Positions 2,613-59,235 of a stretch of DNA of 64,000 nucleotides are shown piece after piece. The notes beneath the pieces were generated by a model that saw only the letters and a program-made list of their open reading frames with translations, was not told where the DNA came from and ran no database searches. This stretch comes from an uncultured Dehalococcoidia bacterium. GTDB taxonomy: Bacteria; Chloroflexota; Dehalococcoidia; Lucifugimonadales; CATOSD01. A program made the translations under genes and the position numbers. Where the stretch lies: NCBI GenBank assembly GCA_951812395.1, contig CATOSD010000001.1, forward strand, positions 1,211,108 through 1,275,107. The letters run 5' to 3'. Position 1 is the stretch's first letter, and the number at the start of each line of letters is the position of its first letter.

Positions 2613-5263
<2,651 letters not shown>

Positions 5264-13003: not shown

Positions 13004-14746
13004 CTACACGCCGTAATCGACGTCCTGGCGGGCGGGGCCGCCGGAGATGCCGACGGGAGCGCCGTCGGCGCGCCAGCACGCCGCGCCTTGGATGAGGCCG
13101 GCGGCGTGGTCGAACATCACGCCGTTCATGCCGCCCGCCACGCGGGCCACCACGCTCACGTCGTGGCCCTTTGCCGCGAGCGCCTCACCGGTGGCAGCGG
13201 ACACGCCCTCCTCGACCTCCACCTGCTGCCCCTGCGTCCAGATTCGTGGCGCCTCAACCGCTTCCTGGAGGGTCATGCCGTGGTCAATGACGTTCACGAT
13301 GGCCTGGAGCACGGACGCGAAGATGCGGGCGCCGCCGGGGGCGCCCAGGGCGAACAGCGGGCGCCCGTCCTGAAGCACGACGGTGGGCGACATGCTGGAG
13401 AGCATTCGCTTGCCCGGCGCGATCGAGTTGGCGGTGCCCGGGTGGGGGTCGAATATGTACATGTTGTTGTTCAGCAGCATTCCGGTGCCGGGCACGGTCA
13501 CTTTGGAGCCGAACGCCTCGTGAATGGTCTGCGTCATGGAGACGACGTTGCCGTCGCCGTCGGCCACTGTGAAGTGCGTGGTGTTGTTGGACTCCCCGAG
13601 CACCGCCGTAACCTCGCCCGGGGCGTAGGGGCGGGCGCGGTCCAGGTCGATTTCCGCCCTTCTGCGGTCGGCGTAACTTTTGGACGTGAGCCACTCGACG
13701 GGCACCTCTACGAAATCGGGATCGCCGAGGTACTCGAACCGGTCCGCAAATGCTATTTTGAGCACCTCTGCCAGTATGTGCGCGGACTGGCCGGCGCCAA
13801 AGCCCATCGCACCCACGTCGAACCCTTCCAGGATATTGAGAGCCTGGACTATGTGAACGCCGCCGGAACTGGTGGGACCCACCGCCACTATGTCCCGTCC
13901 GCGATAGTTGCCCCGCACCGGCTGGCGGTACTTGAGCTCGTAGCCGCGCAGGTCTTCCAGCGTGATGATGCCGCCGTTCGTGCGCATGTCCTCGGCGACG
14001 GTGCGACCGAGTTCGCCGCCGTACAGCTCGTCCGCGCCGTTCTCGGCTATGCGCCGCAGCGTGTGGGCGTAGTCCCTGCGCAGGATGGTCTGGCCCACGG
14101 CGGGAGGCTCGCCGTGGGGGAGGAACACCTCTTTCGTGGCGGGGAAACGCGCCAGATCTTCCTGGTTGTCGGCGATGATTTTCACCAGGTAGGCGCTCGC
14201 CGGAAAACCCCTGTCGGCGTAGCGAATGGCCGGCTGGATAACGGTGTCGAGGTCGAGCCTGCCGTATCTCTCCACGAGGTGGCACCAGCACTTGAGATTG
14301 CCGGGCACGCCCACCGCCAGGTATCCGAGGCGGTTCTTGCGTCCGGCGGCCTCCAGGTAGTCGGGCCAGGTGTTTGATACCGGCTCGTACATGCGATCGG
14401 TCGCCGCGGCGGGTGCGACGGCGTAGTTGTCTATGGTTATGGACTCGCCGGAGGATGCGTCGTGGTAATTCACCATGCCGGCGCCGAAGATGCCGACCAT
14501 CATCGGCTCTACCACGGTGAGGGCGAACGCGGTTGCCACGGCGGCGTCCACGGCGTTGCCGCCCATAGACAGAATCTCCGCGCCCGCGGCCGAGGCCATG
14601 GGGTGGTTGGAAGACACCATGCCGCGGGAACCGGCGGCGGCCCGTTTAAGTGGGACGAATGGACTGCCTGCACGCTCGCGCCAGCCGTTGTTCACGTGGA
14701 CACCTCGTATGTGGAGTATTGTGTGCCGATTGTACCATACGGGCAT
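13004..14746 (-). CDS. ggt: gamma-glutamyltranspeptidase
   Basis: 580-aa ORF. Motifs: GGNAVDAAVA, TTHFTVADGDGN (autoprocessing Thr), SSMSPT. The true start may be the internal ATG at 14620 (MVSSNHPMAS). No signal peptide is visible. Confidence 0.9.
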   Translation of the reverse strand: MPVWYNRHTILHIRGVHVNNGWRERAGSPFVPLKRAAAGSRGMVSSNHPMASAAGAEILSMGGNAVDAAVATAFALTVVEPMMVGIFGAGMVNYHDASSGESITIDNYAVAPAAATDRMYEPVSNTWPDYLEAAGRKNRLGYLAVGVPGNLKCWCHLVERYGRLDLDTVIQPAIRYADRGFPASAYLVKIIADNQEDLARFPATKEVFLPHGEPPAVGQTILRRDYAHTLRRIAENGADELYGGELGRTVAEDMRTNGGIITLEDLRGYELKYRQPVRGNYRGRDIVAVGPTSSGGVHIVQALNILEGFDVGAMGFGAGQSAHILAEVLKIAFADRFEYLGDPDFVEVPVEWLTSKSYADRRRAEIDLDRARPYAPGEVTAVLGESNNTTHFTVADGDGNVVSMTQTIHEAFGSKVTVPGTGMLLNNNMYIFDPHPGTANSIAPGKRMLSSMSPTVVLQDGRPLFALGAPGGARIFASVLQAIVNVIDHGMTLQEAVEAPRIWTQGQQVEVEEGVSAATGEALAAKGHDVSVVARVAGGMNGVMFDHAAGLIQGAACWRADGAPVGISGGPARQDVDYGV

Positions 14747-14763
14747 TTATCTCAAAGTTCATC

Positions 14764-14793
14764 TTGACACATTTCACGATACTGATTTATTCT
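14764..14793 (+). promoter_or_regulatory. candidate sigma70-type promoter for the His-rich ORF (TTGACA-N18-TATTCT)
   Basis: Lies in an AT-rich 100-bp intergenic stretch. The -35 is perfect and the -10 matches 4 of 6. Confidence 0.4.
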
Positions 14794-14844
14794 GAGATTT
14801 AGGGATTAAATCATCACATGCTTTTTGTTTGAAGGAGGATCTCC

Positions 14845-15051
14845 ATGCCGCACGACCAGCACGAATGTGACGCGCACGAGCACCACGGCGGACCGGGCCA
14901 CGTTCACGATCCCCACGAGTGCGACGACCATGAGCACCACGGGCACGACCACGACCAGCACGAGTGTGACGAGCACGAGCACCACGGCGAGCCCGGGCAC
15001 GTCCACGACCCCCACGAGTGCGACGACCACGAGCACCACGGGCACTCCTAA
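14845..15051 (+). CDS. His/Cys/Asp-rich small metal-binding protein (internally duplicated)
   Basis: 68 aa with 24 His and 4 Cys, all Cys in HECD motifs. A 31-aa unit is repeated twice, at 14854-14946 and 14953-15045. Strong RBS gaAGGAGGatctccATG. It sits upstream of a CDF transporter. Confidence 0.75.
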   Translation: MPHDQHECDAHEHHGGPGHVHDPHECDDHEHHGHDHDQHECDEHEHHGEPGHVHDPHECDDHEHHGHS

Positions 15052-15070
15052 CTCTACCTAGCGTCGGCGG

Positions 15071-15100
15071 GTTGAGAGCGTGCTTCGGCACCTTCTCAAC
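15071..15100 (+). other. stable hairpin with UUCG tetraloop downstream of the His-rich ORF
   Basis: gttgaga-gc-gtgc-ttcg-gcac-ct-tctcaac. No trailing U-tract, so it is not a canonical intrinsic terminator. Confidence 0.5.
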
Positions 15101-15122
15101 TCGCTTCACAATTCCTCCGCAA

Positions 15123-15171
15123 CCCTTGGGATTTGCACGTCTTGCACCCTATTGCGTGGAAATCCAAAGGG
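15123..15171 (+). promoter_or_regulatory. 12-bp imperfect inverted repeat enclosing TTGCAC direct repeats, upstream of the CDF gene
   Basis: Arms are cccttgggattt and aaatccaaaggg, with one mismatch. The loop holds TTGCAC-N3-TTGCAC-N4-TTGCGT. Candidate operator or RNA structure. Confidence 0.35.
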
Positions 15172-15389
15172 TGTGCACGTGTCCGGGCAGTCGTCGGCAA
15201 GGGCTTCGCCAGTAGGCCCATTCCGCCACCTTCCCTAGTGATACCTCCATCGAGGGGCAGAAAGTGAGACTGGACAGGATGCTAAATGTCAGGCGCTCCC
15301 TCCAGGAATTGCTATCGTCCCTGAGGCCCACTCCGGCCCTACGCATGAGCGCGGCAGGCCCCGTTCGAATTGGTTCCAACCACCTCTAC

Positions 15390-16571
15390 ATGGCATCCTC
15401 CGGTAGGCAGGAAGGACACGGTCACAACGGCCACAGCGACCATGACGACCATGGTCATAATGGGCATAGCGGCCAGGATCGCAACGGCCATACCGGCCAC
15501 GACCATAACGGACATGCCGCTCACGACGACCACGGTGACCATGAGGGCCACGACCACGACGGAGATGATGACCACGAGGGCCACGACCACGGCGGGCACG
15601 ACCACAGCGGGCACGATCACCAAGACGAGCTGAGATTCGCCAGCCGGAGAAGCCTGGTCATCGGCCTTGTGCTTATCTCGACCTATATGTTCGTCGAGAT
15701 TGTCGGCGGCGTGCTGTCCGGCAGCCTGGCGTTGCTGGCGGACGCCGGTCACATGGCGACCGACGGGGCGGCCATCGCGCTCGCTCTGCTGGCCATGTGG
15801 CTTGCCGACAAAGGCCCCACGGCAGAGCGCACGTTCGGCTTCTACCGCACCGAGATTCTGGCCGCGCTTTTCAACGCCGTCAGCCTGTGGGTCGTCGCCG
15901 GCTACATCCTCTTCGAGGCCTACCACCGCTTTGTAGACGTGCCGCACATCGAGGGCGTGCTGATGATGGTGGTCGGCGTCGGCGGCCTTGTAATCAACAT
16001 CATCACTGCCTGGGTGCTGCACGGCGCATCCCAGCACAGCCTGAACGTGGAAGGCGCGTTCCAGCACGTCCTCGGCGACCTGCTCGGCTCGGTCGCGGTG
16101 GTCGTCTCCGGCATATTCATTCTCACGCTGGAATGGTACATAGTCGATCCCATTCTAAGCGTGTTGATAGCGCTGTTCATCGTCTACAACACGCGCCACC
16201 TGGTTCGCAAGATTGCGGTAGTGCTGGTGGAAGGCACGCCCCCGCACATCGACCTATACGAGCTGTTCGACAGCCTGGAGGACGTGGAGGGCGTCACCAT
16301 CGTACACGACCTGCACGTGTGGACGATTTCGTCGGGCTACGACGCGCTGAGCACGCATGTGCTGGTGGACCGTAACTACCACGGCGGCTTCGACGCACTG
16401 CTGGACGCGCTGCGAGAGGTGATCAAGGGCGAGTACGGCATTACTCACGTTACCGTGCAGATGGAGTACTCGACCACGGAGTGCGACGAGGCCCACCCGC
16501 CGTGGAGCCTGCTCACCGAGAAGCGGCTGGCCCGCGCCGAGAGGCTGCTGGGGCCGGATGCCGCGGGCTGA
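15390..16571 (+). CDS. cation diffusion facilitator (CzcD/ZitB-type) transporter with long His-rich N-terminal tail
   Basis: The conserved TM core begins at LVIGLVLISTYMFVEIVGGVLSGSLALLADAGHM. About 80 N-terminal residues are GH/DH repeats. ATG 15390 was chosen as start; the ORF is open from 15264. Confidence 0.9.
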   Translation: MASSGRQEGHGHNGHSDHDDHGHNGHSGQDRNGHTGHDHNGHAAHDDHGDHEGHDHDGDDDHEGHDHGGHDHSGHDHQDELRFASRRSLVIGLVLISTYMFVEIVGGVLSGSLALLADAGHMATDGAAIALALLAMWLADKGPTAERTFGFYRTEILAALFNAVSLWVVAGYILFEAYHRFVDVPHIEGVLMMVVGVGGLVINIITAWVLHGASQHSLNVEGAFQHVLGDLLGSVAVVVSGIFILTLEWYIVDPILSVLIALFIVYNTRHLVRKIAVVLVEGTPPHIDLYELFDSLEDVEGVTIVHDLHVWTISSGYDALSTHVLVDRNYHGGFDALLDALREVIKGEYGITHVTVQMEYSTTECDEAHPPWSLLTEKRLARAERLLGPDAAG

Positions 16572-16576
16572 TTGGG

Positions 16577-17608
16577 TCAGCCCGGCTGCGCCTCCGACTC
16601 GCCGTAGTAGCGAGCCAGTTCGTCTCTGTCAAATTCCGGCAGCGGCGCCGTCCCCGACGGCGTTCGCATCGTCAGCACCTCCACCGACGGCGTAACCCGG
16701 CCGATCTCCCATGCGGGGATGTCCTCGACGTCCAGCGCCTCGATGAGCGGCGCGGCGTCTTCGGCCGCGACGGTCGCCAGCAGCGCGCCGGACGCAATCA
16801 GCCCCAGCGGGTCCAGCCCCAGAGCGTCGCAGAAGGCGCGGCAGGCAGGCAGAACGGGAACCGCCGCCAGGTCCAGCTCCAGCCCCACGTCCGCGGCCGC
16901 GGCAAGCTCGCGCAGCGCCGTGGCCAGCCCTCCCTCGGTCGGGTCGTGCATCGCGTGGACCGGAGCCGCCCTTCGGGCGACCTCCGCGTCCTTTCGGACG
17001 CTGATGCCCGGTGAGAAGAGCAGCCCCTTCGCATCCTCGACCATCTCCGGCGACACGCCCGCCGCGACCAACTCGGCCCTGGCCTCGCGCGCCAGTATGG
17101 ACGTGCCCTCGATAGCGATGCCCTTGGTGAGCACCACGCTGTCGCCCGGACGAGCGCCCGACGTGAGCACCACCTCGTCTTTGGCGACCTCACCGAGCAG
17201 CGCTCCAACCGCGATGGGCCGGGGCAGGTCGTAAGTCACCTCGGTGTGTCCGCCGACGAGAGCTATGCCGTGCAAACGGCAGGCGTCTAGCAGTTCGTCG
17301 AATATGTGCCGAACCGCGTCCTCGGACACGCCATCCGGCAGCAGCAGCGTCGCCATCAGCCAGCGCGGGGTGGCGCCCATCACGGCGAGGTCGTTCGTGT
17401 TGACCTGCACCAGGTACCAGCCGATGAGGTCTGTAGCGAAGGTTATCGGGTCGGACTTGGCCACCAGGTAGCGGTCGCCGATGTCGACAAGCGCGGCGTC
17501 CTCTCCGGGGCGCGCGCCCAGCACCACGTTCGGGTCGACGAGGTCGATCCTGCCGAGCAGTTCCTCCAAGAAGTCCAGGGGTAGCTTACCCGCGAGCATT
17601 TCGCGCAC
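16577..17608 (-). CDS. AIR synthase-related (PurM/HypE-like) protein
   Basis: 343 aa. GEDAALVDIGDRYLVAKSDPITF and VNTNDLAVMGATP match the HypE/ThiL/PurM fold. There is no C-terminal Cys motif as in HypE, and no N-terminal Cys/Sec loop as in SelD. Confidence 0.75.
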   Translation of the reverse strand: MREMLAGKLPLDFLEELLGRIDLVDPNVVLGARPGEDAALVDIGDRYLVAKSDPITFATDLIGWYLVQVNTNDLAVMGATPRWLMATLLLPDGVSEDAVRHIFDELLDACRLHGIALVGGHTEVTYDLPRPIAVGALLGEVAKDEVVLTSGARPGDSVVLTKGIAIEGTSILAREARAELVAAGVSPEMVEDAKGLLFSPGISVRKDAEVARRAAPVHAMHDPTEGGLATALRELAAAADVGLELDLAAVPVLPACRAFCDALGLDPLGLIASGALLATVAAEDAAPLIEALDVEDIPAWEIGRVTPSVEVLTMRTPSGTAPLPEFDRDELARYYGESEAQPG

Positions 17609-17645: not shown

Positions 17646-17651
17646 AGCGCG

Positions 17652-18377
17652 ATGATGATTGGCGCGGTTTTCTTCGATCTGTACGGTACCCTCGTGGGGT
17701 TCAGTCCCTCTCGATTCGAAATCCAGTCCACGGCCTGCGCGGACTTTGACATCAGCGTGACGCCGGAGGGTATTCTAAGGGGCTACAGGCTGGCCGACGC
17801 CTTCATGGCGGAGCAGAACCGGGTCAGGCCGCTGCGGTCGCTGAGCGACGCCGAACGCGAGGCTTTCTTCGCCAAATACGAGCAGCGAGTGCTGAAGGGC
17901 GCGGGCGCCGAGGTGACGGTGGAGCGGGCGGGCGAGGTCTGGCGGCGCGTCCGGCAGGTGCCCTACGGCATGGCGCTGTTCGACGACGTGGCCCCGACTC
18001 TGGAGACGCTCAGGTCGCGCGGGCTGATGCTGGGCGTGGTGAGCAACATGAACCGGGCCAGTGCTGAGATACTGGCGGATTTCGGACTGGTGGGGCTGGT
18101 GGACTTCGCGGTCACGTCCATCGAGGTCCAGTCGGAGAAGCCGCACGCCCCCATCTTCCTCGAGGCTCTGCGCAGGGCCAACGCGAGGCCGGGAGAGACC
18201 GTGCACGTCGGCGACCAGCTCGAGTCCGACGTGGAGGGCGCGCGCAGCGTGGGCATCACGCCGGTGCTGCTCGACCGCGACGGCAACCATCCCGGGGTGA
18301 CGCACTGCCACCGCATCGAAACGCTGCCCGAACTCCCTGCACTGCTGGAGTCACTTGCCAGCGAAGGCAAGTCTTGA
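17652..18377 (+). CDS. HAD-superfamily hydrolase
   Basis: Start MMIGAVFFDLYGTLV carries the DxYGT motif I. Also SNMN and VHVGDQLESDVEGA (motif IV). Confidence 0.85.
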   Translation: MMIGAVFFDLYGTLVGFSPSRFEIQSTACADFDISVTPEGILRGYRLADAFMAEQNRVRPLRSLSDAEREAFFAKYEQRVLKGAGAEVTVERAGEVWRRVRQVPYGMALFDDVAPTLETLRSRGLMLGVVSNMNRASAEILADFGLVGLVDFAVTSIEVQSEKPHAPIFLEALRRANARPGETVHVGDQLESDVEGARSVGITPVLLDRDGNHPGVTHCHRIETLPELPALLESLASEGKS

Positions 18378-18389
18378 ATTTACTCCTCA

Positions 18390-19571
18390 TTATACGTCGA
18401 CTTCCCTCAGAGCATTCGCCACTTCCTTACCCTTGTTCTGGAGAAACTCCTCCATCTTCTCATCTATCTTCTGGCGGATCTCTTCTTCATCGAGCTCATC
18501 GTAATCCTTCTTGGATAGCCAAGGAATTGAGAAGAAAGTGTGCCACTTCGACGACAACTTGGGCTTTGGCCGGCCGAATACTCTAGGCACGCTCCTTGCC
18601 TTAATGTACACCTTCTGCCGCAACTCCTGATTGCCTGGCCCTAAAATCACCTTGAGCCTGAGCCCGAAGTTTTCTCGATTTTCCAACTCACAAAGTACTA
18701 TCCGTTTGCTACTAGTCCATCCCGAACCCTCGTGAGGGAGGGAGTCCATGCAATGGGGTAAGAAGCGTATACAAGTCTTGCTGCTGTCGTCCGCAATCAG
18801 GTCGTCCCTTGAAGCGATGTAACCTTCTGTAATCTGGCGCACCTCGGCCGCGCGGTCCGGCCTGTTTTCGAAGATAAGGTCCAAGGCCTTACGGTGGTTC
18901 TTGTAGAGCCTGCGACAAAGCTCTTGGATTTCCGACTCTTCCAAAATGTACCTCCGCACCATGTCAATGTACTGCTGCACGAACAACCTAACATCGTCAT
19001 TGAGTTGGCTTTTGCGTCTTTCAAGGGCGTGTTCGACTATGCAGACCAGGTCTCTGTGACTCAGGCGGACATAGTTTTCGTCCGATGGGGGCTCACCAGA
19101 GACGGTCAGGAAGACAAACGCCTTCTTGTACTGACCAAAGGTTCCTTCGACGAATTCTCGGTATCGCTGAAGCTGATTGGCATGTTCGCCAGCGTCCACT
19201 TTGTTTTCAATGGCGCAAACGAAGAGATTGTCTTCATCTACGATTAACAGGTCGATGTTGCGCCATTCGCTGCGGACCTCCGCTCGGCCAAGGTTCCAGC
19301 CATCCAGATCGAACAGCGAAGGGAAGTCGTCGTGGTGGACCTCACCATCTTTGATTACCTTCAGGAGCAACTGGCGCAGCCAGTAATCGCCGAGGCCATG
19401 AGTCTCAGATGGGTCCAACAACCAACGGATGAAGGCGGAATGGCGAAGCTCCTGGCGAACGATATCTAGAGACGCAAACAGGTTGAATCGGTCAAGAGTT
19501 GCTTCTAGCTGTTCCAGGTCTGGGTTGTCATCAACAAAAGCCTTCAGCTCTTCAATATCGTTTCCGCTCAA
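18390..19571 (-). CDS. PD-(D/E)XK nuclease family protein (PDDEXK_4-like)
   Basis: 393 aa. N-terminal FNLFASLDIVRQELRHSAFIRWLLDPSETHGLGDYWL. Catalytic-type IDLLIVDEDNLFVCAIENKVDAGE (D...ExK). The DNA is visibly lower in GC than its flanks. Confidence 0.8.
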   Translation of the reverse strand: MSGNDIEELKAFVDDNPDLEQLEATLDRFNLFASLDIVRQELRHSAFIRWLLDPSETHGLGDYWLRQLLLKVIKDGEVHHDDFPSLFDLDGWNLGRAEVRSEWRNIDLLIVDEDNLFVCAIENKVDAGEHANQLQRYREFVEGTFGQYKKAFVFLTVSGEPPSDENYVRLSHRDLVCIVEHALERRKSQLNDDVRLFVQQYIDMVRRYILEESEIQELCRRLYKNHRKALDLIFENRPDRAAEVRQITEGYIASRDDLIADDSSKTCIRFLPHCMDSLPHEGSGWTSSKRIVLCELENRENFGLRLKVILGPGNQELRQKVYIKARSVPRVFGRPKPKLSSKWHTFFSIPWLSKKDYDELDEEEIRQKIDEKMEEFLQNKGKEVANALREVDV

Positions 19572-57696: not shown

Positions 57697-59235
57697 ATGC
57701 TCGCCAAGTGCAAGACCTGCGCCGTCGTCGGCCTGAACGGCCTGATAGTCGAAGTCGAGGTAGATATCCTCCCCGGCCTGCCTGCGTTCAACATCGTCGG
57801 CCTGCCCGACGCCGCCGTGAAGGAGGCCAGCGAGCGGGTGCGCTCGGCCATCCGCAACGCCGGCTGCGAGTTCCCCATGCGCCGCATCACAGTCAATCTC
57901 GCGCCCGCCGACCACCGCAAGGCCGGCCCCGCCTACGACCTGCCCATCGCCGTCGCGCTGCTCGTCAGCTCCGGCCAGATCGAGGACGTCCCCAGATCAT
58001 CCATATTCTTGGGAGAGTTGTCCCTCGACGGGACGCTCCGCCACACCAATGGCATACTGCCGATGGTGGCCGTCGCGCGCGAAGAGGGCATGCAGCGCGT
58101 GTTCGTGCCGGCCCCCGACGCCAACGAGGCCGCCTTGGTGGACGGTGTGGAGACCATCCCGGTCTCCTCGCTGGGGCAACTGCTTCACCACCTGAACGGT
58201 GGTCCCAGAATCTCACCCGCGGCGAGCGACATCGCCGCCGACACCAACGGCTTTGTGTCCGCGGACGACTGCCGTGGAGGTGTGGACATCGCCGACATTC
58301 GCGGCCAGGAGCACGCCAAGCGCGCCATCGAGGTCGCCGCGGCGGGCGGGCATAACCTGCTCATGAGCGGTCCGCCCGGAAGCGGCAAGACGCTGCTCGC
58401 GCGCAGCCTGCCATCCATCCTCCCCAGGCTGACCCAGGACGAGGCGCTGGAGGTCACCAAGATATTCAGTATCAGCGGGCTGCTCCCCTCGTCGTCCCCG
58501 CTCATCAACCGGCGCCCCTTCCGGTCGCCGCACTATACCATCTCCAACGCGGGACTCGTGGGCGGCGGCCGCATCCCCAGGCCCGGCGAGATTACGCTGA
58601 GCCACCGGGGCGTGCTGTTCCTCGACGAGCTGCCGGAGTTCGGGCACACGGTTCTGGAGGTGTTGCGCCAGCCCATCGAAGACAAGGTGGTTACCATCAG
58701 CCGCGCCCAGGGCACCGTAACCTTCCCCGCAAACTTCATGCTCGTGGCTGCCATGAACCCCTGCCCTTGCGGATTCGCCGGAGACCCAGGCAAACAGTGC
58801 GTCTGCTCCCCAAGCCAGGTCACCCGCTACTCCAAGCGGATCAGCGGCCCGCTGATGGACAGGATTGACCTGTTCGTCGAAGTGCCCAGGGTCGAATACG
58901 AGAAGCTCACCAGGCCGCCCGAGACGGACACTTCGGCCCGGACGCGCGATCGGATCGAGGCGGCGCGCCTGGTGCAGGCCAGGCGTTTCGAGGGCACGGG
59001 GCTGATCACCAACTCCGAGATGGGGCCGGTCGAGGTGTGGGAGTACTGCAAGGTGGACGACGCGGCCGCCGGCCTGCTGCGCATGGCGACCAGCAGACTG
59101 CACCTGTCGGCGAGGGCGTTCCACCGCGTCCTCAAGCTCGCCAGGACCATCGCCGACCTCGGCGGCGCCGAAAACGTTGAGGCGCCGCACCTCGCCGAGG
59201 CGCTCCAGTACCGCCCCGCCGAGCAGACCGCGTAG
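57697..59235 (+). CDS. comM: YifB/ComM family Mg-chelatase-like ATPase
   Basis: 512 aa. N-terminal Lon-like domain (VEVEVDI.PGLPAFNIVGLPD), Walker A GPPGSGKT, FLDELPEF. Confidence 0.93.
   Translation: MLAKCKTCAVVGLNGLIVEVEVDILPGLPAFNIVGLPDAAVKEASERVRSAIRNAGCEFPMRRITVNLAPADHRKAGPAYDLPIAVALLVSSGQIEDVPRSSIFLGELSLDGTLRHTNGILPMVAVAREEGMQRVFVPAPDANEAALVDGVETIPVSSLGQLLHHLNGGPRISPAASDIAADTNGFVSADDCRGGVDIADIRGQEHAKRAIEVAAAGGHNLLMSGPPGSGKTLLARSLPSILPRLTQDEALEVTKIFSISGLLPSSSPLINRRPFRSPHYTISNAGLVGGGRIPRPGEITLSHRGVLFLDELPEFGHTVLEVLRQPIEDKVVTISRAQGTVTFPANFMLVAAMNPCPCGFAGDPGKQCVCSPSQVTRYSKRISGPLMDRIDLFVEVPRVEYEKLTRPPETDTSARTRDRIEAARLVQARRFEGTGLITNSEMGPVEVWEYCKVDDAAAGLLRMATSRLHLSARAFHRVLKLARTIADLGGAENVEAPHLAEALQYRPAEQTA

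Follow-up and report, generated by a model that had tools for sequence, protein, structure and literature searches.

The window, a 64,000-nt stretch of DNA from an uncultured Dehalococcoidia bacterium, carries at 14845-15051 on the + strand a gene for a small His-rich protein. Judged from its sequence and that of its neighbours, the protein probably serves in the cytoplasm as a disordered, metallothionein-like buffer or donor of Zn(II), in partnership with a His-tailed CDF exporter. It belongs to a family of HECD-repeat proteins that appears to be unannotated and unrelated in sequence to BmtA/SmtA, Hpn and SmbP, and that would represent a kind of protein already known. The traits that distinguish the family are a strictly conserved modular unit, an unusual set of ligands in which His predominates and each unit has a single Cys, and the association with a His-tailed CDF.

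The open reading frame (ORF) begins with ATG and encodes 68 residues, with the stop codon within its coordinates. The translation given in the original prediction was exact, and a recount returned the same 24 His and 4 Cys, the same two 31-aa repeats differing at 2 residues, and the same four motifs. Besides these ligands the protein contains 11 Asp, 10 Glu, 7 Gly and 5 Pro, only four aliphatic residues, and neither Lys nor Arg. The repeats have a period of 99 nt, each comprises two HECDxHEHH motifs, and they differ at 9 nt, of which 7 lie at third and 2 at second codon positions. When the window was scanned with a degenerate 27-nt pattern for HECDxHEHH, the following four matches were found, all within the ORF, against 0.00 expected from shuffles.

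14860..14886, + strand: HECDxHEHH unit 1
14914..14940, + strand: HECDxHEHH unit 2
14959..14985, + strand: HECDxHEHH unit 3
15013..15039, + strand: HECDxHEHH unit 4

Each H-x-H-D-x-H-E-C-D-x-H-E-H-H unit offers as potential ligands about 7 His, a single Cys and 4 carboxylates. The longest run of His is two residues, and the Cys residues occur singly, within HECD. The N-terminus, MPHDQHECD, has no hydrophobic segment and no signal peptide. As it lacks Lys and Arg and has almost no hydrophobic residues, the 68-aa chain cannot fold on its own. AlphaFold2, run with a 26-sequence alignment, returned a mean pLDDT of 51, a pTM of 0.10 and no secondary structure, which is not surprising for a chain that has no hydrophobic core and would fold only around metal.

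The pattern of codon change indicates that the + strand ORF is a real protein-coding gene. In comparisons with the orthologues in relatives L008, L021 and L022, the ratios of synonymous to nonsynonymous codon changes were 15:3, 14:5 and 18:6 in the + frame, whereas for the same pairs the two open antisense frames gave 0:18-2:22 and 2:16-3:21. The counts, like the third-position skew between the two repeats, favour the + frame only, in agreement with the view taken in the original prediction that this ORF, and not the one opposite, is the gene. Across 83 non-redundant loci, the core residues H, E, C, D, H, E, H, H are identical in 408-411 of 411 units, and each of them is written with an alternative codon in 10-22% of these units. 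The start codon is ATG in 81/83 family genes, and 75/83 have an RBS-like 5-mer ahead of it. It is conceivable that the ORF is no gene but a by-product of a DNA-level repeat, or that the true gene lies on the opposite strand, and we assign this a probability close to nil. Antisense frames of 79 and 111 aa are indeed open in the window and in 77/83 and 71/83 relatives, respectively, the exact 68-aa sequence is absent from a collection of 15 billion proteins, and gene callers usually miss the ORF. However, the antisense frames are open because the complements of His, Glu, Asp and Cys codons form no stops, the ATG and RBS are conserved on the + strand, and ratios of 0:18 and 2:16 antisense against 15:3 in the + frame refute both a non-gene and an opposite-strand gene. 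Gene conversion between the two halves was also considered and set aside. Orthologous halves, 6-9 nt apart, are at least as close to each other as the paralogous halves are (9 nt). The internal duplication is therefore older than these species, and conversion need not be invoked.

Family sequences are present in probable RNA data of related strains, which constitutes weak evidence of expression. Contigs from three runs guessed to be RNA matched the ORF at 90-97%, with the flanks unmatched; they are short, come from related strains, and derive from the host organism whose runs also contain the window sequence and from a second organism. One of these runs also contained a contig that matches the L044 CDF at 98%, L044 being a relative. 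A comparison of the RNA-run contigs with L044 at 95% recovered the CDF contig and no HECD contig.

Homologues, which the original prediction had proposed to look for, were found in 278 species genomes when the DNA of a single genome for each GTDB species was scanned. Taxonomy rests on the 80 loci listed out of the 278 genomes with relatives. Among these 80 loci, 76 are labelled Chloroflexota (Dehalococcoidia, Tepidiformaceae, SAR202 and one Anaerolineaceae), one is unclassified and at least two, L027 and L055, are from Acidimicrobiia (L055 from Ca. Spongiisociaceae). In the Acidimicrobiia MAGs L027 and L055 (L060 being unclassified) the family gene is found together with its CDF, and its occurrence there reflects either horizontal transfer, perhaps among sponge symbionts, or a binning error. 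The window sequence itself was found in runs labelled 'sponge metagenome' and in runs of one host organism, and many hosts of the family are apparently sponge symbionts.

At the protein level, a word-indexed search of 5.8 billion proteins returned 25 small proteins of 37-103 aa, and an exhaustive profile search of 1.84 billion representatives returned 33 clusters, all of 31-133 aa. In these 33 representative clusters the HECD unit always occurs in stand-alone small proteins and never as a domain of a larger one; two apparent fusions, P0054 (419 aa) and P0070 (396 aa), proved to be unrelated proteins placed in clusters. Family members are annotated at source only as 'hypothetical protein', and, with relatives in 278 genomes at the DNA level, gene callers evidently miss the family. 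The unit had been described as belonging to no nameable family, and searches with the 68-aa peptide bear this out, with 0 Pfam families at E <= 0.01, no match in NCBIfam and 0 matches among PDB sequences at E <= 10. Literature searches for the motif, for His-rich Dehalococcoidia proteins, and for sponge symbionts with zinc and CDF yielded nothing relevant.

Family proteins contain 2, 3, 4, 5, 6, 7, 8 or 10 units, those with 10 units reaching 167 aa. The unit consensus is H-V-H-D-x-H-E-C-D-x-H-E-H-H-[A/G], and units are connected by G-(D)-E-P-G linkers or joined directly. One Cys is present per 14-residue unit (411 units). The first unit begins 3-15 residues into the protein, and there is no leader or follower region. 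The number of units is even in 78/83 proteins, which suggests that the working module is a pair of units. In L042 two family genes lie in tandem (4615-4842 and 4989-5219, encoding 75 and 76 aa), with znuACB before them and a convergent CDF after them.

The sequences flanking the window gene contain candidate control elements, as follows.

14764..14793, + strand: promoter-like TTGACA-18 nt-TATTCT, 10/12 matches, a candidate from sequence
14783..14813, no strand assigned: inverted repeat TGATTTATTC / GATTAAATCA, 90% complementary, spanning the -10 element and the likely transcription start
14833..14838, + strand: RBS AGGAGG, 6 nt before the ATG
15065..15106, + strand: GC-rich stem-loop 14 nt past the stop codon, without a U-tract, terminator-like or a 3'-end stabiliser

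The strong RBS and separate promoter that had been claimed for the gene are thus both represented, the latter by a promoter-like sequence. The spacing of the -35, -10 and RBS elements is preserved in the close relatives L008, L021, L022 and L025. The inverted repeat, a candidate operator, is not conserved in L008-type relatives. An alignment fold of five close relatives predicts 16 pairs in the 3' hairpin, 6 of them with compensatory changes. In 57/83 loci the folding of the 80 nt that follow the stop codon has z < -2, compared with 4/83 control windows, and this signal is alike in loci where the CDF is co-directional and where it is convergent. The family gene thus appears to be transcribed separately and not in an operon with the CDF, though in the window read-through into the CDF is possible. 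A permissive Rfam scan of 13500-17500 found no riboswitch, and so no czcD/NiCo element, the only match being a chance one to a miRNA (E 0.51).

Upstream regions of the family genes are enriched in TCTCAA (31/83, expected 5.1) and GATAC/GTATC (47/83, expected 18). A 13-bp 5-3-5 dyad, GAKAY-N3-[ACG]TMTC, with GATACATTGTATC and GAGACTGCATCTC as examples, was distributed as follows, and a strict form of the dyad gave similar results.

Upstream regions of family genes: 19/83
Upstream regions of znuA in the same loci: 6/7
Upstream regions of CDF genes: 1/59
Random 200-nt windows: 0.83/83

The core of the dyad, GATA-N5-TATC, we take to be Fur-box-like. At znuA it falls downstream of the promoter and ahead of the start codon. 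In the family genes it is found next to the -35 element or a short way upstream of it, sometimes in 2-3 copies. The form GATAY-N3-RTATC and its variant GAGAY-N3-ATCTC occur in about a quarter of family-gene promoters and in znuA promoters. Sites were noted at L010:4870-4935, about 125-161 nt before the family gene in L044, L046, L048 and L061, and upstream of znuA in L041, L042, L058, L062, L065 and L039. The dyad could be the Zur box of these Chloroflexota, and its sharing with znuA suggests that part of the family is controlled by a zinc sensor. It is not a common feature of the CDF promoters, so co-regulation of the family gene with the pump is unsupported. The window's own family-gene promoter does not contain the Zur-like dyad. 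The sole exact GATAYNNNRTATC in the window (58461-58473) falls inside a 512-aa ORF (57697-59235) and was taken as a chance occurrence.

A dyad placed next to or ahead of the -35 element is compatible with repression and activation alike. If the genes were repressed by Zur, the protein would be made in zinc starvation, which would fit storage or a chaperone role better than detoxification. In Synechococcus WH8102, Zur activates the metallothionein gene bmtA and represses znuABC (PMC9337993). The bmtA promoter of that strain has znuA-like Zur boxes (PMC9337993), which parallels the dyad common to the family and znuA promoters. In S. coelicolor, Zur activates zitB (PMC11077047), a second precedent for a single Zur that represses znuABC and switches on a zinc sink or exporter. 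Upstream of the family gene in L030 there are two direct copies of TCTGTGAAC-N3/4-T(G/A)TTTGG (4803-4825 and 4873-4895), which resemble TGAACA..TGTTCA operators of the ArsR/SmtB type. Different lineages may use different zinc sensors.

To define the gene neighbourhood, ORFs were called in all the loci and then clustered; the resulting counts come from related genomes and are phylogenetically non-independent. The only widely conserved neighbour of the family gene is a CDF gene, placed as follows.

CDF at the 3' side, co-directional: 34/83 loci
CDF at the 3' side, convergent: 34/83 loci
CDF 4 kb upstream of the family gene: 1/83 loci
CDF absent within 5 kb: 14/83 loci

The co-occurrence with CDF genes that the original prediction had proposed to check thus holds on the 3' side in 68/83 loci. 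Adjacency that survives inversion points to a functional link rather than to co-transcription. The loci without a CDF include both of the non-redundant 2-unit loci looked at. In the window, the neighbouring features are these.

15279..16571, + strand: CDF exporter, ZitB/CzcD-like (Pfam, NCBIfam, HD-HD motifs)
15390..15629, + strand: cytoplasmic tail at the N-terminus of the CDF, rich in His, Asp and Gly and devoid of Cys (23 His in 80 aa)

The CDF is the next gene downstream, as had been stated, but not immediately so, since a gap of 212-227 nt containing the conserved hairpin intervenes. Its ORF opens at GTG 15264, a codon that is GCG in two relatives, and the conserved ATG at 15279 is the likelier start. 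A block just 5' of the gene, CCTCCATCGAGGGGCAGAAAGTGAGACTGGACAGGATG in 15240-15281, is conserved in L008, L021, L022 and L025; CCTCC could pair with GAGGGG ahead of the CDF, and this may form a candidate regulatory hairpin in the 5'-UTR.

The predicted exporter matches Cation_efflux (PF01545, 6.4e-44) and ZT_dimer (PF16916, 6.2e-12) and passes the TIGR01297 CDF model with 271.9 bits (cutoff 82.35). Its best equivalog is ZitB, at 249.9 bits, with DmeF at 105.7; as the ZitB score is below the equivalog cutoff of 408, the protein is called ZitB/CzcD-like and not ZitB. An HD-HD site in TM2 and TM5 marks Zn-selective CDFs. In the window CDF this site is formed by GHMATD (TM2) and QHVLGD (TM5), and equivalents are found in 55/62 neighbouring CDFs. 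A low-complexity His/Asp/Gly tail of 80 or more residues, strongly His-rich and Cys-free, is present at the N-terminus of 57/59 neighbouring CDFs, with a median of 34% His over the 80 residues ahead of TM1.

Other genes of zinc metabolism accompany the family less frequently. Genes for ZnuA, an ABC-3 permease and an ABC ATPase lie within 5 kb of the family gene in about 14-16 of the 83 loci, and the ZnuA encoded there has a His/acid-rich loop. Fur-family genes (PF01475) occur within 5 kb in 4 loci.

L030:3983-4360, - strand: Fur-family gene
L057:881-1246: Fur-family gene
L027:1163-1585: Fur-family gene
L060:146-562: Fur-family gene

In L030 these genes form a compact island, znuB-znuA-fur followed by the divergent family gene and CDF. 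The 64-kb window yielded no Fur-family gene, and none of the conserved neighbours is a nickel or cobalt gene (urease, hydrogenase, NikR, RcnR). A set of anti-sigma/STAS/RsbU-type genes and a Peripla_BP_6 gene were rejected as partners of the family, being lineage-specific synteny in 8-19 loci.

Taken with composition, this neighbourhood permits a conditional scheme for the function of the protein. Each chain would bind several divalent metal ions, most likely Zn(II). Paired units, joined by the G-(D)-E-P-G turn, might for example supply one Cys2His2-type site per pair together with weaker His/carboxylate sites, and the number of units would set the binding capacity. The chain would then buffer cytosolic zinc or act as a sink for it in the manner of a metallothionein, and might pass it on to the His-rich tail that the neighbouring ZitB/CzcD-type CDF bears at its N-terminus. 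With its own promoter and its own hairpin, the protein could be set to a level independent of that of the pump, and a zinc sensor would control those family members whose promoter carries the znuA-type Fur/Zur-like dyad. Zn, Ni, Co and Cd had all been put forward as the metal. The ZitB-like HD-HD CDF, ZnuABC, the Fur-family genes and the Zur-like dyad favour Zn, and the other three are less favoured.

The predicted protein shares several properties with the bacterial metallothioneins BmtA and SmtA, being small (~55-70 aa), cytoplasmic and with little structure without metal, and encoded by a stand-alone gene. Sequestration of several Zn(II) by Cys and His would be a further likeness, expected for the HECD family by analogy, and a metal-sensor operator may be another. 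As to zinc-sensor control, the dyad is found in 19/83 family promoters, the window's not among them, and L030 has the repeats that resemble ArsR/SmtB operators. SmtA has mostly Cys with 2-3 His, and the metallothionein cluster uses about 9 Cys and 2 His for 4 Zn. In contrast, the HECD protein has the reverse ligand set, 24 His to 4 Cys, and no Cys-dominated cluster. It shows no sequence similarity to BmtA/SmtA (Pfam Metallothio_Pro) in Pfam or among PDB sequences, and its family differs further in the modular build from 2-10 tandem units and in the link with a CDF gene.

Hpn and Hpn-like of Helicobacter pylori are small cytoplasmic proteins with about 35-47% His and few Cys, and serve as a metal store or buffer against excess metal. 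Hpn contains stretches of poly-His as well as Cys-Cys pairs, its metal is Ni (and Bi), and it is known only from Helicobacter. The HECD protein is likewise very His-rich, small and cytoplasmic with few Cys, but its family has a strict 14-residue unit with a single Cys, Zn-type neighbours, and hosts among the Chloroflexota and Acidimicrobiia. Poly-His runs, Cys-Cys pairs, a library match to Hpn and a nickel gene context are all absent from it. SmbP of Nitrosomonas europaea is also small and His-rich, with short tandem repeats, and binds many divalent or Cu ions; it is periplasmic with a signal peptide, helical and Cys-free, and its structure has been solved. The HECD protein, unlike SmbP, has no signal peptide and one Cys per unit, and has no match among PDB sequences at E <= 10. 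The likeness to Hpn and SmbP drawn in the original prediction thus stands as a functional analogy and fails as homology, there being no sequence match. Low-complexity His/Asp segments are also known from the cytoplasmic tails and loops of CDF/ZnT transporters, where they are thought to collect Zn. These are borne by the transporter and Cys-free, whereas HECD units are never fused to a larger protein and are far more strictly conserved. MntS of E. coli is a small stand-alone protein, neither His-rich nor repetitive, that is tied to the Mn exporter MntP, separately regulated, and proposed to restrain it. It and the HECD protein are both small and tied to a metal exporter, and have no sequence relation.

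Two other readings keep the protein in metal homeostasis. One would have it store or detoxify Ni(II) or Co(II) (or Cd) as Hpn does, with the neighbouring CDF exporting those metals. A ligand set of His with few Cys is indeed of the Hpn type, CDFs of the CzcD group often carry Co or Cd besides Zn, and the ZitB score of the window CDF, 249.9 against a cutoff of 408, does not fix its specificity. We nevertheless regard this as unlikely, as the CDF has the HD-HD site and a much higher score for ZitB than for the Co/Ni exporter DmeF, the family is accompanied by a ZnuA with a His/acid-rich loop, by Fur-family genes and by the znuA-type dyad, and genes for urease, hydrogenase, NikR or RcnR are not among its conserved neighbours. 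The protein could instead be a small regulator that gates or inhibits the CDF, for example through a metal-bridged His tail, as is proposed for the pair MntS and MntP. Its tight adjacency to a single transporter regardless of orientation (68/83), the richness of both partners in His, and the separate promoter motifs and terminator-like hairpin, which would allow their ratio to be tuned, are all compatible with such a role. The variation from 2 to 10 units, however, fits capacity, that is stoichiometric binding, better than a specific protein-protein interface, and the CDF is missing in 14/83 loci; gating therefore seems quite improbable.

The two remaining readings give the ORF a different role altogether and both have very little in their favour. 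As a cis-acting leader peptide or attenuator, its His codons and the terminator hairpin would control read-through into the CDF, an arrangement that recalls the his-operon leader, and the window does present 24 His codons, a strong hairpin 14 nt later and then a CDF on the same strand. Both the ORF and the hairpin nevertheless persist where the CDF is convergent (34/83) or absent (14/83), co-direction being confined to 34/83 loci, so that the convergent loci largely refute attenuation. Nor would a codon-sensing leader need Cys, Glu and Asp to be as invariant as His, or extend to 167 aa with 10 units. The near-identical tandem repeats of variable number also resemble the cores of a multi-core RiPP precursor, which would be processed and exported as a metallophore. 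This has scarcely any likelihood either, as the loci have no conserved genes for modifying enzymes, proteases or peptide exporters next to the ORF, the CDF being the only widely conserved neighbour, and as the first unit starts 3-15 residues from the N-terminus with no room for a leader and with no follower.

The reading of the protein as a zinc buffer or donor bears on two gaps. Cytosolic zinc buffering in bacteria is, to our knowledge, poorly understood outside the metallothioneins of cyanobacteria and pseudomonads, and we know of no protein that delivers metal to CDF exporters. A near-invariant 9-residue motif (411 units), its occurrence in 278 genomes and its link to a Zn-type CDF make the family a clean, short and synthesisable candidate for such a buffer or donor. 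As the gene is unannotated and mostly uncalled, it is missing from inventories of metal homeostasis in Dehalococcoidia/SAR202-type and sponge-symbiont genomes. The HECD unit could also serve as a compact genetically encoded metal-binding tag. More speculatively, and only as a tentative suggestion, HECD proteins might be the first case of a cytosolic zinc partner dedicated to a CDF, a His-based 'metallothionein' tuned by its unit number (2-10) and set by Zur that feeds the tail of the pump, with which sponge-associated Chloroflexota and Acidimicrobiia would bank or shed zinc in a metal-accumulating host.

Several further observations concern the genes around the family locus. In the CDF-less loci L001/L002, L059 and L071, the family gene is flanked by a HAD hydrolase gene on one side and by thiS-thiE(-thiG) on the other. 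Beyond the window CDF, at 16577-17608 (- strand) and 17646-18374 (+ strand), are a homologous HAD hydrolase gene and an AIR-synthase-related (ThiL/HypE-like) gene; the HAD/thi context may be a remnant of synteny that was interrupted by insertion of the CDF. Further along, at 18390-19571 (- strand), is a 393-aa ORF with a TTG start, rich in Lys and Glu and unlike its neighbours in composition. On the other side of the family gene, the listed start of the GGT ORF (window 14688-14746, - strand) is the ATG at 14746, and conservation starts near an internal GTG (...VNNGW). Translation probably begins some 16 codons further in, and the divergent intergenic region would then be wider.
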